Part shown: positions 14,583 to 43,493 of the stretch, in pieces
Position numbering within the stretch: the stretch's first letter is position 1
How the letters are laid out: each line of letters begins with the position of its first letter
From: Lytechinus pictus
Taxonomy: Eukaryota
Assembly (NCBI RefSeq): GCF_037042905.1
Contig: NC_087250.1
Coordinates: 7,318,001-7,382,000 of the forward strand
Length of the DNA: 64,000 nucleotides
Direction of reading: 5' to 3'
The notes under the pieces: generated by a model
The model's input: only the letters and a program-made list of their open reading frames with translations
Database searches by the model: none
What the model was told of the DNA's origin: nothing
Program-made: the position numbers and the translations under genes

Positions 14583-14684
14583 GTGTGTGTGTGTGTGTGT
14601 ATTTGAGTTTTGTCAGACGTGTATCAATCAGATATGATTATTTACGTCTGGGACCGACCTTTAACGTCACCATCCGAAAGACGT
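14583..14684 (-). mobile_element. 5'-truncated copy of the candidate 7SL-headed SINE
   Basis: Reverse complement matches 29825-29927 essentially exactly, including the (CA)n tail. Confidence 0.85.
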
Positions 14685-19506: not shown

Positions 19507-20794
19507 TTAAACACTAGTTACATTTTTGTAACCTTTTTTTACAGTTTGATCCCCGGGGTATGATAAGCTTGCCCAAACTTATACGTATACTTACGATTTA
19601 ATATAGCAAGCATACGTTAAAAGAGGAGTTTTATTCAAGTTTGTTGACCTGGCGTGACCTTTGACCTCGGTATTGCGATATGAAGACTGTGTCACATAAT
19701 TTGCTTTACATTGGGTATTTATTATAGAGACATGTTCTATGGAATAGTAAAAACAAAAAAAGAAAACGCTTTTTTGGATACAAAAAAAAGCTCGGCTGCT
19801 TCATTCGCTCGTCTATAATATCTCTCACATCTTATTCTTGCCCACAACATGCTTTCTGTGTTCTTCTGTTTTGCCTGAAATGAACTTTCACCTTGATTTT
19901 GAAACCAGTGGGGGTGTTTTATGAAGTCAATAGCCAGTGAGTATTACTGACAGATGTTTCCCGAGCCAATCAGATGCAAGGATTTCGATAGCTTATAACA
20001 ATTGTCAGTGAAAATCATTGAATGATTATTTGATGGAAAACTCCCCCACATTTTCTGTCACATGATGTGTGACACTAAATTGCCCAGTAGGGTATTGTAT
20101 TTCCAGAGTAATGTTTATCATGGTATCATCTGTAAAAGTTTGATCATAGCAGAGACTCCCATGAACATAGTTCAATTTTTGATGTCGACAACGCTGCGGC
20201 GGCTTTTGCCGACGAAAAAGCGACGCCTGTGTGTCTCGCCTCTGTTACGGCCGCAAAACATTTTGTTGATGCCAGTGTTTTAAGTGTGTTTAATTCATTT
20301 GAAATAATTTTCAATAAGATTAATTGTAAAGGATTTGTAAGTGGTGGTCCATGTATAGTTTGAGAGAGATCATAGAGTTAGATATACTCAGATACTAATA
20401 AGAATAGATGAAGGACTGAAATGTTTTTTATTGATTTATAATTTCTTACTACATTTACTGCATTTTCGTTTCATTGATTCATTGCTTTAATGAAAGTATA
20501 GTTTTTGAAAGAGCTTTGTATGATTGAAAATTATATAGTTCTGTATGAACTCTGTTGTGATTTTGATTTAAGAAATCAAGAAATGAACAGCACTATTAAA
20601 TGGCAATCAATGCATCACTTTGCTAAATATCGAATCTAAAATGGCTACATTTTCACGTATTGCTCCGATTGAGAAAAAAAATGACTAGTTGTCAATTTTA
20701 ATCTGCCTTATTATTAAATAAAAAAGCGTGTGACACATAGCCTCTGTAATTGTCATTATTTGCGGATTTGCCGCATCCCCCGATTTGTAGAAAA

Positions 20795-23375
20795 CCAGCA
20801 AATTCCTTCTCCTCGCCTATAGAGTTCAAGTAGAAGATGATACAAATGTTGGTTCAATTCACTCTCAATTTGAGCTAAAGTTGATTACTAGAGATTTTGT
20901 TTTGAAACAGATTGATATTCTGAGTATAGATAAATCAACTGGGGAAGATCATGTCAGCTGCAAACTTTTAAAGATGACAAAAAATGTTATCGCAGAGTCC
21001 CTTTGTGATATTATTAACAAATCCCTTTCTACTGGAGTTTTTCCTCATGAATGGAAAAAGGCTCGGGTGGTACCAATATTTAAATCTGGTGATATTTCTT
21101 CGTTGAATAATTACCGCCCCATTTCTATATTACCAATCGTAAGTAAAATTTTAGAAAGGGCTGTTCACCAACAGCTAAGTGAATTCTTGGACGTGAATGA
21201 TTTATTACACCCAAATCAATCTGGTTTTCGGCCTATGCATTCAACAACTACTGCCCTTGCAAAACTTGTAAATCAGTGGTCGTTAAACATTGATAACAAT
21301 TTAATTTCTGGAGTTGCGTTCATAGATCTTCGGAAGGCCTTTGATACCGTGGACCATGAGCTGCTTTTAAAGAAATTAGCTTTGCATTGGTTGTAGTAAT
21401 AGGACTATCACTTGGTTCAAATCATATTTATTTGATCGGCAACAAGTGACACAATTCAAAGGAGCCAAATCGCACCCTTCAATCGTCAAATTAGGCGTGC
21501 CACAAGGGTCAATTCTAGGTCCCCTTTTATTTTCAATATATGTTAATAGTTTACCTGAATGTATTCATGAAGGTATCATAGATATGTACGCTGACGACAC
21601 GACACTTACCGTCAGAGCGAATGATGCGACAGTTTTGGAAGAAAAATTAACTGTTGCATTAAACAAGGTCATGGCATGGATTAAAGATAATCAGCTCGTC
21701 CTCAACACTGAAAAAACTTGTGTCATGATAATAGGTTCTCGTGCTAATCTCAGGAAAATAGATTCTTTCACGATTTCGTTAATCGGTGATTTGATAAATA
21801 GAGTTAAACTCACCAAATGCTTAGGAGTTTTGATAGATGAAGAACTGAAATGGTCAAAACAAATTGAAAATGTATGTAAACTTACTCAGAAAAGTATTGG
21901 CATAATAAAGAGAGCGAAAAGTTCTTTGCCTGTGCAGTCCTTAAAGTTGCCTTTTATTACAGTTTAAAGTTGCCAATATTTGATTACTGCTCTGCGGTAT
22001 TGTCGAATGGATTTCAATCCCATACAATTAAGCTGCAAAAAATTCAGAAGAGGGCTGCAAGAATAATATTGAGCAAGACATACGACACACCGTCGGCTGA
22101 TTTGTTCGCAAGTCTTAAAGGGGAATCCAGCCTTGGCCATAAAATGTTGTGTTGGGAAGGAGAAAAATAAATGAAACAGAATGGTGAAAGTTTGAAAGAA
22201 ATCGGACAAGCAATAAAAAAGTTATAGCTGCTTTAAAATTGAGATCATTAATAGTATGTAGAATTCAAATTGGCAACTGGGTAAGTAAATTATGACAAGG
22301 GGCAAGGACAACTTTCCCATAGGCCATGTACTTTATTATCAGGGTTTTGTGGTTTTCTCCTAAGTACCCATTCCCCTGGGGCAGTAATCTAAAAATAACC
22401 CAGGTAGTATATTGTTTTATGTCCTCATGAAAGAAAAATATAATTTGAAATAAAACTTTGGGGAAAATGACATTTTAGCCATAATATGTATTGGAGTACA
22501 TGGAAGAGTAGTCCTTGCCTTACATCACTATGACATCCCATATGCGGCCAATTTGAAGTCTCCATGGGTATAGTGATTACCAATATTTACAACTTTTAAA
22601 AATTCATAACTTTCTTGTTGTTTGTCCAATATTTTTGAAACTTTCACATATCAACTTGTCTGATTTTTCTTTTTCTTATAAAAACAAGTTTTCATTTGGG
22701 TTGAATTCCCCTTTAAATGGATGACACTAGACAAACGATTTGAGCTCAGTCGCGTTTTGATGATATATAAATGTGTTCATAATTTAGCACCTTCTTACCT
22801 TCAGGTAAACTTAACCAATCCAAATGATGTACATGAACATCATACCAGACAGAGAGACAGTGGATATTTACGCGTGCCCAAGTTTCGCACTGATTGTTAT
22901 AAGTGTAGTCCAATTGTATCTTCAATATTTGAATGGAATAAGCTTGATAATTCAATTAGAACAGCTCCTTCTGTCATTTCATTTAAGAGAATGTTTAGAA
23001 GAACTTGTAATTTATAAATAACTTGCGGAACATCCACTGTTGTGCGTATTTTGTGTTAGCATGACCTTGATGATTTGGTGTATATTATCAGTATTTTCAA
23101 GATGTCGTTCTTAGTTAATTTGATTTATTGATATTTGATTATACGTCAAACGAGTGCCCGTCTGCGTTTTGTTTGCTGCTAAGTTTGTTAATGTTTCGTT
23201 TTACATTCAAATTCTAATGTGAATTTTAATGCCGTAACATTCTGTACATACGTTATACATTTTGTAAATATGTTTATTGTTATTCAGGGCCCCATGGAAG
23301 ACCACTACTTATTGGTGAATGGGCTACCCTTTCAAAATATCAGAAACAAATAAATAAATAGATTAAATAAATAAA
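20795..23375 (+). mobile_element. 5'-truncated CR1/L2-group LINE with a disrupted ORF2 reverse transcriptase
   Basis: Motifs NYRPISILP, QSGFR, FIDLRKAFDTVDH, GVPQGSILGPLLF and YADD (21587-21598); frameshifts at about 21380 and 21960; MITE insertion; (TAAA)n tail. Confidence 0.95.
22119..22712 (+). mobile_element. Kolobok-like MITE (family C) inserted in the LINE
   Basis: TTAA TSD; TIR AGGGGAATCC; near-identical copy at 54611-55205. Confidence 0.9.
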
Positions 23376-29224: not shown

Positions 29225-29329
29225 ATGACACCAATGAACTATAATAGTCATACTTTGCAGGAGCATCACGGGGAGATTTAAGTTAACATCTACGATCACA
29301 ACCTTTATATTCCAGTAGATCATACTTCA

Positions 29330-29590
29330 TAGTGTGTTCACAGTGTGCTCACAGTGTGTTCTGTGTGTTCATATTGCATTTAAAGTGTGTTCAAAGTGCG
29401 TTCACAGTATGCTCAAAGTGTGTTCAAAGTGTGTTCACAGTGTGCTAAATGTGTGTTCAAAGTATGTTCAAATTGTGTTCACAGTGCTGCAGTGTGCTCA
29501 TAGTGTGTTCAAAGTGTGTTCACACTGTGTTCACAGTGTGTTCAAAGTGTGTTCACAGTATGCTCAAAGTGTGTTCACAGTATGATCAAA
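29330..29590. repeat. 11-bp minisatellite (CACAGTGTGTT / CAAAGTGTGTT)
   Basis: Direct inspection; degenerate continuation at about 29980-30120. Confidence 0.85.
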
Positions 29591-29660
29591 GGAGGCGCGA
29601 TAGCTCAGTCGAGCGGGGGATTCAGATTCCGGTGACCCGGGTTCGATTCCTTGGTGCGCT
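29591..29660 (+). mobile_element. tRNA-like SINE head
   Basis: A box TAGCTCAGTCG and B box GGTTCGATTCC; followed by a TAGTCTGCTG element like 42967-43121. Confidence 0.65.
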
Positions 29661-29741
29661 AGTAGTCTGCTGTGCAAACCCTTCACTCGAGTAAAGGGTA
29701 TGAATTGCAGCCTACTCATGCCTTGTGTACGCCCTTGTGTA

Positions 29742-29927
29742 CTGGGCGTTGTGGCGTGCGCCTGTAATCCAAGCTGTGGGGAAGTTACAAATTGATGCAG
29801 AGGTTCGAGGTTCGAGCCCTGGTCACGTCTTTCGGATGGTGACGTTAAAGGTCGGTCCCAGACGTAAATAATCATATCTGATTGATACACGTCTGACAAA
29901 ACTCAAATACACACACACACACACACA
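29742..29927 (+). mobile_element. Candidate 7SL (SRP RNA Alu domain)-derived SINE with B box, Deu-like core and (CA)n tail
   Basis: Head CTGGGCGTTGTGGCGTGCGCCTGTAATCCAAGCTGTGGGGAAG; B box GGTTCGAGCCC; core GTCTTTCGGATGGTGACGTTAAAGGTCGGTCCC; second copy at 14583-14684. Confidence 0.75.
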
Positions 29928-30374
29928 GAGAAGGCCCTCTCACTAGTCCTTGCGTAGAGACACACTTGTTGATCAAAGTTTCAATCAAAGTTTCACACTG
30001 TTGACAATAAAACAGTGTAAGTGTTAACAGTGTGTTCACATGCATTGTCGGTATATGAGATTCACATTTGTTGATAAAACACACTTTGAAGATGATTTCC
30101 AAGTGTGAACACAGTGTGGATGCATTGTAGTACGCACTGTGTGGAAACCATGAACCCGTTTCATAAAGACTTGTTATATTAAAAAATGCGCAATTTCTAT
30201 AACAAATTAACGATCAGCCAATAAGATTGAAGGATTTCAGCAGCTTATAACTGTTATTGGAAATTTGTTATTATAAAAACTTTTGTGAAACAGACCCCAT
30301 GTTCTTTGATGCGCCATTTGATTAATGATTTATCAAGTTGAATTTTGTTCCTCACCGGCCATGCTATATAGTAT

Positions 30375-30775
30375 ATACAGTCACACTATAAAACGAAACC
30401 GACTCCAAACCGGCCGATTGTATATCATTAGAAATAACGTAATATATTTCCTCGGTCTTGAGCTGGTTTATTCGTTGTGAGTTTCGTATACCAAACCGAC
30501 TCCCTATCAACCGATGATATGCCATTAGAAATACGTAGTAGCTTTGATCGGTATGGAGTCGGTTTACCCGGTGTGAGTGTCGTATACCAAACCGACTCCC
30601 AGCCAACCGATGATATACCATAAGAAATAACGTAATATATATTTCCTCGGTCTGAAGTCGCTTTATCCGGTTTGAATGTCGTATACCAAACCGACTCCCA
30701 ATCAACCGAAGATATGCCATTATCCGTAATAGATTTACTCGGTCTCGAGTCGGTTTACCCGGCGTGGCTATAGCA
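30375..30775. repeat. About 95-bp minisatellite, ~4 units
   Basis: AAACCGACTCC recurs at about 30396, 30493, 30589 and 30688. Confidence 0.8.
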
Positions 30776-42966: not shown

Positions 42967-43121
42967 TAGTCTGCAGGCACAGACCTTGATTGAAACGCAA
43001 AGACTCCACGCAAAGACTAGCACATACAAAAATTGTTGTTTAGAGGGCCGTCAGTACACAAGGCATGGGTAGGCTGCAATTCAGACACTTTACTCGAGTG
43101 AAGGGTTTGCACAGCAGACTA
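42967..43121. mobile_element. AcademH-like non-autonomous element
   Basis: TIR TAGTCTGC / GCAGACTA; perfect 9-bp TSD GTTTAAGCC. Confidence 0.8.
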
Positions 43122-43493
43122 GTTTAAGCCCGTCACTCTAACAACAAGTTGTTTATTTTTGATAATTGTTTAAACTTATTAAACAAATTGTTTAAAAAGT
43201 TTAAACAATAGTTGTTAGAGTGACGGGGTTAAACAACGTGTCTAAGCTTTTAAAAGCACTTTTACAGTGCACAAATGTATAAAGTTATAGGCTAATTTAT
43301 TCTCTGTATTTCTAATAGTTGTCTCGAAATGTAAATTTGTTAATAAGGACTAGCTATTTATATCACAGAGTCAGTATACCAAGCATGTTTTTTGTCAACT
43401 CTGTCACTTTAAAATAAAATGGCACTTCGGCCTCTCATATTACCATCTGTTATAATGAATCATACTACGCCTAACTGTGATCCTACAAATTAA

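Follow-up and report, generated by a model that had tools for sequence, protein, structure and literature searches.

A probable chimeric SINE family with a 7SL RNA-derived head in the sea urchin Lytechinus pictus

Short interspersed elements (SINEs) that stem from 7SL RNA, the RNA found in the signal recognition particle (SRP), include Alu, the human genome's most successful mobile element. According to a 2024 preprint by the SINEBase authors, SINEs of this kind arose in three lineages only, namely supraprimates, shrew moles, and hagfish (bioRxiv 10.1101/2024.08.25.609555), and the abstract of its 2026 journal version (PMC13023118) names only supraprimates and hagfish as earlier cases. In the described 7SL SINEs, both ends of the 7SL RNA are kept after a central deletion of ~183 nt (PMC7245038, PMC13023118). 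In this study, we analysed a stretch of 64,000 nucleotides from the sea urchin Lytechinus pictus (RefSeq assembly GCF_037042905.1, contig NC_087250.1, positions 7,318,001 to 7,382,000 of the forward strand; the whole stretch is called the window below), which contains a 187-bp element at 29741..29927 on the plus strand. We consider it highly probable that this element is one copy of a recently active, chimeric echinoderm SINE family, composed of a 7SL head, a foreign body, and a tail of the type used by long interspersed elements (LINEs).

The closest analogue of this family is SINE1-1_EBu of the hagfish Eptatretus burgeri (Kojima 2020, PMC7245038). Both SINE1-1_EBu (2,363 copies) and the sea urchin SINE are young and have a few thousand copies, and in both of them a 7SL head is joined to older, non-7SL sequence derived from a SINE or LINE. 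In addition, both end in a simple-repeat tail rather than in poly(A), which points to a stringent LINE other than L1, although in the sea urchin this LINE is presumed. However, SINE1-1_EBu keeps the 5′ and the 3′ parts of 7SL (the full Alu domain) together with the 7SL B box, and its RTE partner is known, whereas the sea urchin SINE has the 5′ domain only (~45 nt), a foreign B box, a (CA)n tail, and an invertebrate host. Alu, B1, and Tu of Euarchontoglires and Urop of the shrew mole also have a head that starts at 7SL nt 1 and includes the A box and helices 2-4, and they also have subfamilies formed by small internal duplications and deletions (PMC13023118; bioRxiv 10.1101/2024.08.25.609555). 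Unlike the sea urchin SINE, these four consist of 7SL alone or of 7SL plus a tRNA SINE, carry the ~183-nt central deletion and a poly(A) tail, and are moved by L1.

Meanwhile, the same piece of 7SL, from nt 1 to ~46, was used in SA46, a 46-nt 5′ Alu domain that was shown to bind SRP9/14 and to be enough to retrotranspose a tagged RNA in HeLa cells (Moldovan, Yin and Moran 2025, PMC12199147); the Alu 3′ domain does not bind SRP9/14 according to the same paper. However, SA46 is an engineered construct that has a promoter for RNA polymerase II and uses L1 via poly(A), whereas the sea urchin SINE is natural, presumably relies on RNA polymerase III (Pol III) for transcription, and carries a stem-loop plus a (CA)n tail. 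Finally, the tRNA SINEs described from sea urchins (SINE2-n_SP; SP-4 and SP-5 of SINEBase; PMC4758252, PMC3531059) share with our element the host group, a tRNA-type B box, and a LINE-type tail. They differ from it in their tRNA-derived head and, in several cases, in a CORE domain, a distinction drawn from their descriptions and not from their sequences.

The boundaries of the element were set by aligning dispersed copies with unrelated flanks. The first base is at 29741, as the text of the original prediction had it, while the start that it listed (29742) is one base late. The 7SL-derived head (29741..29785, plus strand) corresponds to helices 2 to 4 plus the U-turn in the Alu 5′ domain of SRP and aligns with positions 1-46 of the Rfam Metazoa_SRP model. 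Within the head lies the 7SL A-box decamer (29745-29754, plus strand; element nt 5-14), which was located after PMC7245038 and differs from the human decamer in that paper at 2 of 10 positions. The head is followed by a linker (29786..29824, plus strand) with a Pol III B box. The B box, GGTTCGAGCCC, lies at 29809-29819 on the plus strand and is the second unit of a 7-bp duplication, of which the first unit, GGTTCGA, lies at 29802-29808. It is identical to GGTTCGANNCC, which we take to be the consensus, and it stands ~45-55 nt from the A box.

The 3′ module (29825..29909, plus strand; element nt 85-169) consists of a long stem-loop and a short A-rich stretch after it; it was delimited by fold results and by a truncation hot spot at nt 85-88. 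The stem-loop is two-tiered (29859-29895, plus strand) and has a folding energy of -13.0 kcal/mol, against -4.5 +/- 1.9 for shuffled sequences (z -4.4; 0 of 200 shuffles as stable). A small hairpin was found at 29822-29843 on the plus strand (z -2.4; 3 of 200 shuffles as stable), whereas the SINE as a whole is not thermodynamically unusual (z -1.09 against shuffles). The element ends in (CA)9 (29910..29927, plus strand), and it contains no internal run of four T (T4). The B box, the short body, and the (CA)n tail of the original prediction are therefore all present. Furthermore, ARAGORN called no tRNA in the window, and the only match of the Rfam tRNA model (29594-29661) lies outside the SINE, with none on the linker or the head. 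The head is not tRNA-derived as in SINE2 elements, and the B box is the sole tRNA-like part. SINEBase defines a SINE as a short (<1 kb), interspersed, non-tandem repeat (PMC3531059), and an element of 187 bp with dispersed copies agrees with this definition. Judged by its sequence, the element qualifies as a SINE by the formal criteria of that database.

The original prediction had derived the head from 7SL RNA on the basis of its first 35 nt, and the model searches agreed with it. The Rfam Metazoa_SRP model matched 29741-29833 with 31.6 bits (E 1.9e-6, with reporting by E-value), and the 47-nt head alone gave 31.4 bits (E 1.6e-7). The heads of the other SINE subtypes scored 29.6-31.1 bits on the same model. 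At the Rfam gathering threshold there was no match anywhere in the window, as expected for one sixth of a 7SL RNA. When the genome was searched with the SRP model, we found seven full-length 7SL genes (272-283 bits), and the remaining 18 scored matches (32-35 bits) were copies of the SINE.

The comparison with the genome's own 7SL genes was more specific than that with the model. By blastn, element nt 4-31 were identical at 28/28 positions to a 7SL gene of this genome (E 7e-13). With the 7SL gene L037 on contig C12, nt 1-30 agreed at 30/30 positions in an alignment that starts at the first base of the gene, and the 47-nt head agreed at 42/48. In an alignment of the seven genes with five SINE variants, 30 of the first 31 columns were invariant. 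At the lone variable column, nt 3, the base of the SINE is found in L037 only among the seven genes, and both nt 3 and its pairing partner in helix 2 are changed in the SINE and in L037, which amounts to a compensated double change. Of the helix 2-4 pairs in the covariance-model alignment, only one is non-standard, and it is equally so in the true gene; the U-turn and the helix pairing are thus kept, as had been claimed. Furthermore, the head shares the substitutions that separate the 7SL RNA of this genome from the Rfam metazoan consensus. By sequence comparison, then, the head, that is, the first ~45 nt, is derived from the 7SL RNA of this genome. Because it fits its own 7SL better than any consensus, including the lineage-specific substitutions and the compensated change of L037, the comparison also points to an origin of the 7SL piece inside this lineage, in agreement with the independent origin that had been proposed.

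No further 7SL sequence was recognised in the element. Locally aligned to 7SL from nt 48 to its end, element nt 48-170 scored 15, no better than shuffled sequences (15.3 +/- 2.0; 290 of 500 did as well), and with softer scoring the linker resembled neither the middle nor the 3′ end of 7SL above chance level. Accordingly, additional 7SL sequence in the body was rejected. We also rejected a B box taken from the 3′ flank of a 7SL gene, since 166-314 of 500 shuffles align as well beyond the box itself. Under the SINEBase criterion of a forced global overlap of 60 nt, the element reached 72-77% with its own 7SL (at least 60% is needed), with homology ending at ~nt 45 and only chance similarity beyond. 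Nothing past ~nt 45 is 7SL, and thus the SINE did not arise by a central deletion. The likeness to Alu as a SINE1 element, which had been part of the original prediction, therefore holds for the head, which starts at the first nucleotide of 7SL and takes the fold of the Alu 5′ domain in the covariance-model alignment, the thermodynamic fold alone not being distinctive. It does not hold for the rest: the 7SL part is only ~45 nt long and is not a deleted 7SL, and only the 5′ half is kept, whereas SINE1 families share both 7SL ends after the ~183-nt deletion. Similarly, an Alu-like gain of an internal B box had been suggested. The box does exist, but it lies in non-7SL sequence and thus came with the foreign body, whereas that of Alu evolved inside 7SL.

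The abundance of the family was estimated in the 811.7-Mb assembly (368 contigs). A Pfam Bindin match of 236.7 bits (E 1.5e-67), with no such match in any of 14 control genomes, places this genome in the echinoderms; bindin is a sperm protein of sea urchins that is also reported from sea stars. A similarity search with 29580-29927, in which 40 of 4,896 first-look candidates were scored, listed 43 matches. Among the matches listed, 37 of 43 begin at query positions 156-166, that is, within 6 nt of window position 29741, and 13 of 43 are 100% identical over 181-187 nt. In addition, an exact 29-mer of the head, chosen to contain an extra A not present in the 7SL genes, was found at 734 places in the genome, and an exact 29-mer of the 3′ module (tail) at 874 places; the reversed control patterns were found at 0 places each. 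The head-bearing places are spread across chromosome-size contigs. On contig C1 there were 28 head-tail pairs, with spacings of 132 (9 pairs), 127 (9), 134 (4), 125 (2), 135 (2), 140 (1), and 91 (1). The four main spacing classes are combinations of two indels, one of 2 nt in the helix-4 loop and the other the 7-bp duplication at the B box. The window copy belongs to the spacing-132 subtype, in which the B box is duplicated; subtypes with a single box also occur. The copies fetched for each class share their first base, which corresponds to 7SL +1, whereas their flanks are unrelated, so the full-length copies share this 5′ end across the four indel subtypes, as the original prediction required. 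Copy lengths were 171-194 bp in 19 of 21 copies; one copy was internally deleted (135 bp), and in one the tail end was not detected. The commonest young form and the window copy do not differ (100% identity). Because many copies are identical, the family is young and recently active.

The tail places on contig C1 without an exact head numbered 26, and 20 loci with 21 such tail places were fetched. Thirteen of the 21 were full-length copies with point changes in the head, and eight were 5′-truncated. None of the 21 carried another head, which speaks against a tRNA head on other copies, the outcome that would have reduced the window copy to a one-off chimera. Furthermore, a genome-wide pattern search for a parent with a tRNA head, with foreign sequence before nt 48, found 0 places.

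The truncated copies provide evidence of retroposition. They begin at ~nt 35, 77, 80-87, 85, 86, 88, 98, and 127; the DNA upstream of them is unrelated, and none runs on into another element. The window itself contains such a copy at 14583..14684 on the minus strand, which is 100% identical over 102 nt to element nt 85-186 and has an upstream flank unrelated to the SINE. This had been taken as the sign of a repeated retroposon, and we agree. Target-site duplications of ~14-15 bp flank the truncated copies L044 and L064, that of L044 being 14 bp; the duplication of L062 is 8 bp, and that of L038 is 7 bp when exact and ~11 bp with one mismatch. Duplications of at least 6 bp were present in 9 of 84 copies with flanks, against 4.0% in a control with mismatched flanks. 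The length of the (CA)n tail varies among copies. In addition, the upstream flanks often end in A or CA, which would fit priming on the (CA)n tail.

The 5′ ends of truncated copies pile up at element nt 85-88, just past the B-box region (window 14684; L042, L044, L053, L055, and L058). Foreign sequence before nt 85 was found at 67 places when up to 3 mismatches were allowed, a few of them internal-deletion variants and not truncations, and no upstream hexamer recurred more than 2 times. This cluster suggests either a discrete 3′ RNA fragment, perhaps produced by processing, or a preferred stop of reverse transcription. Meanwhile, a young SINE copy at L024 1480-1700 is preceded by 10 nt of its own head in inverted orientation, perhaps the trace of a 5′ inversion or a snap-back at insertion; this copy lies near the right end of a miniature inverted-repeat transposable element (MITE). 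Targeting of Pol III genes was considered and rejected, as ARAGORN found 0 tRNA genes in 43 loci.

How such an element might work can be outlined from its parts. The head is a copy of host 7SL from nt 1 to ~45, with helices 2, 3, and 4, the U-turn, and the A box, and the foreign body supplies a canonical tRNA-type B box. Pol III would start at element nt 1 by means of the A box from 7SL together with the foreign B box, and it would read through to a terminator in the flank, because the SINE has no T4 run. In a comparison of sequencing runs by shared sequence words, the best runs contained 0.27-0.36 of the words, roughly the part that the SINE makes up of the queried stretch, and RNA runs labelled as sea urchin or echinoderm metagenome contained only 0.07, which does not count as evidence of expression. 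The head would fold like the SRP Alu 5′ domain, probably bind SRP9/14, and in this way bring the RNA to ribosomes that are making LINE protein; this step is proposed because the 46-nt 5′ Alu domain binds SRP9/14 in human cells (PMC12199147). The 3′ stem-loop and the (CA)n tail appear to be of the kind recognised by stringent LINE reverse transcriptases. Such an enzyme would bind them, and target-primed reverse transcription would follow, leaving short target duplications or none. As to the origin of the family, the most economical explanation is a template switch, in which a reverse transcriptase would have passed from a tail-bearing RNA to a 7SL RNA at the foot of its 5′ domain and copied it to the first base. 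This route has been discussed for chimeric SINEs by Kojima 2020 (PMC7245038). Alternatively, the family may have originated by DNA recombination.

Several results weigh against this interpretation. First, the head scores 31.4 bits on the SRP model, whereas the first 47 nt taken from a genuine 7SL gene of the same genome reach 42.6 bits. The shortfall is located in the helix-4 loop, which has an extra A and, in the subtype of the window copy, is also 2 nt shorter. A loop C that presumably forms a tertiary pair in mammalian SRP is missing from the SINE head. With these changes in the helix-4 loop, binding of SRP9/14 is not assured. Folded alone, the 47-nt head is also of ordinary stability (z +0.92; equalled by 168 of 200 shuffles). 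Second, duplications of at least 8 bp were seen in only 4 of 84 copies (control 0.4%), and two of the four are tandem-copy artefacts. Because duplications of at least 6 bp were seen in only 9 of the 84 copies and those of at least 8 bp in 4, most insertions have very short target duplications or none. Third, a LINE that shares the 3′ end of the SINE, which the original prediction had suggested looking for, was not found by pattern searches and in ~36 LINE loci; as these searches were limited to exact or near-exact patterns and to those loci, the negative result is a gap and not evidence of absence. Specifically, foreign sequence before nt 85, 147, and 154 was found at 4, 0, and 0 places, respectively, with no LINE among them. 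The 20 tail-only loci of contig C1 showed no LINE joined to the SINE 3′ end, nor did the 67 places found at nt 85 with up to 3 mismatches reveal one. At 30 loci round the best RVT_1 matches, chosen from 150 that were scored among 12,239 candidates, there was no similarity to the tail and no CA run, and none of six fetched LINE 3′ ends was shared with the SINE.

Among the candidates for a shared LINE end, the 4 places with foreign sequence before nt 85 are truncated or rearranged SINE copies. A LINE at locus L118, with a CR1/L2-like open reading frame (ORF) of 1008 aa and a CA-rich tail, resembles the SINE tail only at chance level when the CA run is set aside (237 of 1000 shuffles), and it is a lead only. 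Finally, the window contains a LINE fragment at 20791-23017 on the plus strand, whose reverse transcriptase and CR1/L2-like C-terminal region are split over several frames. Its 3′ end, near 23340-23375, is an (AAAT)n-like tail unrelated to that of the SINE.

The points just listed leave some room for a more modest role of the head. It is possible, although we do not favour it, that the 7SL piece provides only the Pol III start, the A box, and perhaps a stable 5′ structure, that there is no SRP9/14 binding or ribosome docking, and that retroposition proceeds via the 3′ end alone. Stringent LINEs recognise 3′ ends (PMC7245038), and the 3′ stem-loop, with its z of -4.4, is the most stable feature of the SINE; moreover, the helix-4 loop is altered between subtypes, which lowers the SRP model score, and a variant found on contig C10 lacks 8 nt at the head/body joint. 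However, the retained 7SL piece stops at the end of the 5′ Alu domain and not at the end of the A box at nt 14. Nt 1-30 are invariant across the five SINE variants compared, the helix-2 pair is preserved by the double change, and the same 46-nt domain is what SRP9/14 needs in human cells (PMC12199147).

The family offers a natural experiment on the part of 7SL that counts, since the 5′ Alu domain is kept and the rest is discarded, in agreement with the deletion experiments of 2025 (PMC12199147). In addition, the family is young and the embryos of sea urchins can readily be injected and fractionated, so transcription, SRP9/14 binding, and retroposition are directly testable.

As regards novelty, we think the chances are about even that the family is the first outside vertebrates to carry a 7SL head, that such SINEs have here been born independently for the fourth time, and that this is the first natural SINE with only the minimal 5′ Alu domain, set on a foreign B box and a stringent-LINE tail. 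In that case, the docking of RNA at ribosomes via SRP9/14 would be a recurrent, host-independent way to parasitise LINEs of quite different clades, and the central deletion seen in mammals and hagfish would not be the sole route to a 7SL SINE. The published papers that we searched, as distinct from the Repbase and Dfam collections, contained no report of this family and no 7SL SINE from an echinoderm or another invertebrate. An echinoderm family would extend the range of 7SL SINEs to invertebrates, as the three origins counted so far in the sources cited at the outset are all vertebrate. It is unlikely, but by no means negligible, that the family is already in Repbase or Dfam, for instance labelled as a sea urchin SINE that is unclassified or of tRNA type, its short 7SL head having been overlooked, so that nothing but the annotation would be new. 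Deposits of sea urchin SINEs go back to 2005 (SINE2-1_SP and others; PMC4758252), and ~45 nt of 7SL likeness is short for automatic classification; the short overlap also suggests that automatic classifiers may miss similar families in other invertebrates. On the other hand, a Repbase curator recognised well-defined SINE1 elements in 2020 only in Euarchontoglires and in the hagfish family (PMC7245038). The SINEBase authors in 2024 (bioRxiv 10.1101/2024.08.25.609555) and the 2026 abstract (PMC13023118) list no other cases than those given above, and 23-nt strings of the head were absent from the literature text searched.

Some copies could have been multiplied as DNA, and this has to be weighed against retroposition of RNA. 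The window copy is inserted in a MITE-like element, whose left arm lies at 29663..29740 and whose right arm, with an internal deletion and without the right terminal inverted repeat, lies at 29928..29987 (both on the plus strand); the arms were recognised by alignment to L002-L004, L009, and the empty copies L024 and L032. There are exactly five such SINE-in-MITE composites in the genome (the window, L002, L003, L004, and L009), all with the SINE at one identical internal site, and they include three SINE subtypes and three junction forms. Furthermore, a repeat of more than 3 kb that is common to several loci contains some of the copies, tandem dimers among them, and three copies lie in a duplicated 7SL gene unit. 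Nevertheless, a spread of the family within a MITE, a larger transposon, or segmental duplications instead of by RNA is very improbable: the MITE-borne copies account for only 5 of at least 734 places, the other copies examined have unrelated flanks from exactly nt 1 and a variable (CA)n end, and truncated copies carry target duplications. The SINE-in-MITE pattern possibly reflects an insertion hot spot, gene conversion, or source copies within the MITE. Even further from credible is the view that the 7SL likeness is due to chance, convergence, or a contaminating mammalian Alu, for which nothing speaks but the short length of the match, and against which stand the blastn E of 7e-13 with the genome's own 7SL gene, the shared substitutions that distinguish this 7SL from the Rfam metazoan consensus, and the 734 places across chromosome-size contigs.

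The MITE-like element is ~215 bp long and has the terminal inverted repeats TAGTCTGC...GCAGACTA, with a 9-bp duplication in L003. Besides L024 and L032, an empty copy lies in the window at 43004-43123 on the minus strand. Head-to-tail SINE dimers with a spacing of ~190 bp were found at L039 1501-1875 and in L084, and paired SRP-model matches were found on contigs C2, C4, C7, and C18. The dimers sit in the repeat of more than 3 kb, which is 97% identical between L039 and L040 and covers the 569 bp of L084. An Alu-like dimer as the retroposed unit was rejected, since the dimers belong to this shared repeat and L040 has a monomer at the same site.

The surroundings of the 7SL genes showed two further features. 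Each of the three 7SL genes that contig C10 carries (at 1501 in L031, L035, and L036) has a SINE variant 33 bp upstream of it; the copies are at 877-1049 and 1290-1467 in L031, at 1294-1467 in L035, and at 1315-1473 in L036. Compared with the window copy, the variant shows 91% identity in L031 and L035 and 81% in L036, which has internal deletions, and its 8-nt deletion is at the head/body joint. It interrupts conserved upstream promoter motifs that are intact at the 7SL genes L033 and L034, and by a rough estimate the chance expectation of SINE insertion before the C10 genes is ~0.003. Meanwhile, the B-box-like sequence GGTTCGAGTC, partly with a T-arm-like stem, occurs 20-45 nt past the terminator T run in 6 of the 7 genes (L031-L036), even at genes whose flanks are otherwise unrelated, and is absent from the C12 gene. 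In addition, an old, diverged fragment at L010 285-345 resembles the head/body joint of the SINE, contains an internal 18-nt duplication, and adjoins a tRNA-like SINE head at L010 395-480.

Directly before the left MITE arm in the window, the tRNA-like stretch at 29594-29661 (plus strand) reached 25.5 bits on the Rfam tRNA model, with a cut-off of 29, and had no ARAGORN call; no second copy of it was found in the window or in the examined SINE loci. Just upstream of it, at 29326-29581, there is an 11-bp satellite, TTCACAGTGTG, with 23.7 copies. Downstream of the SINE, a 96-bp tandem repeat with 3.9 copies occupies 30396-30766.

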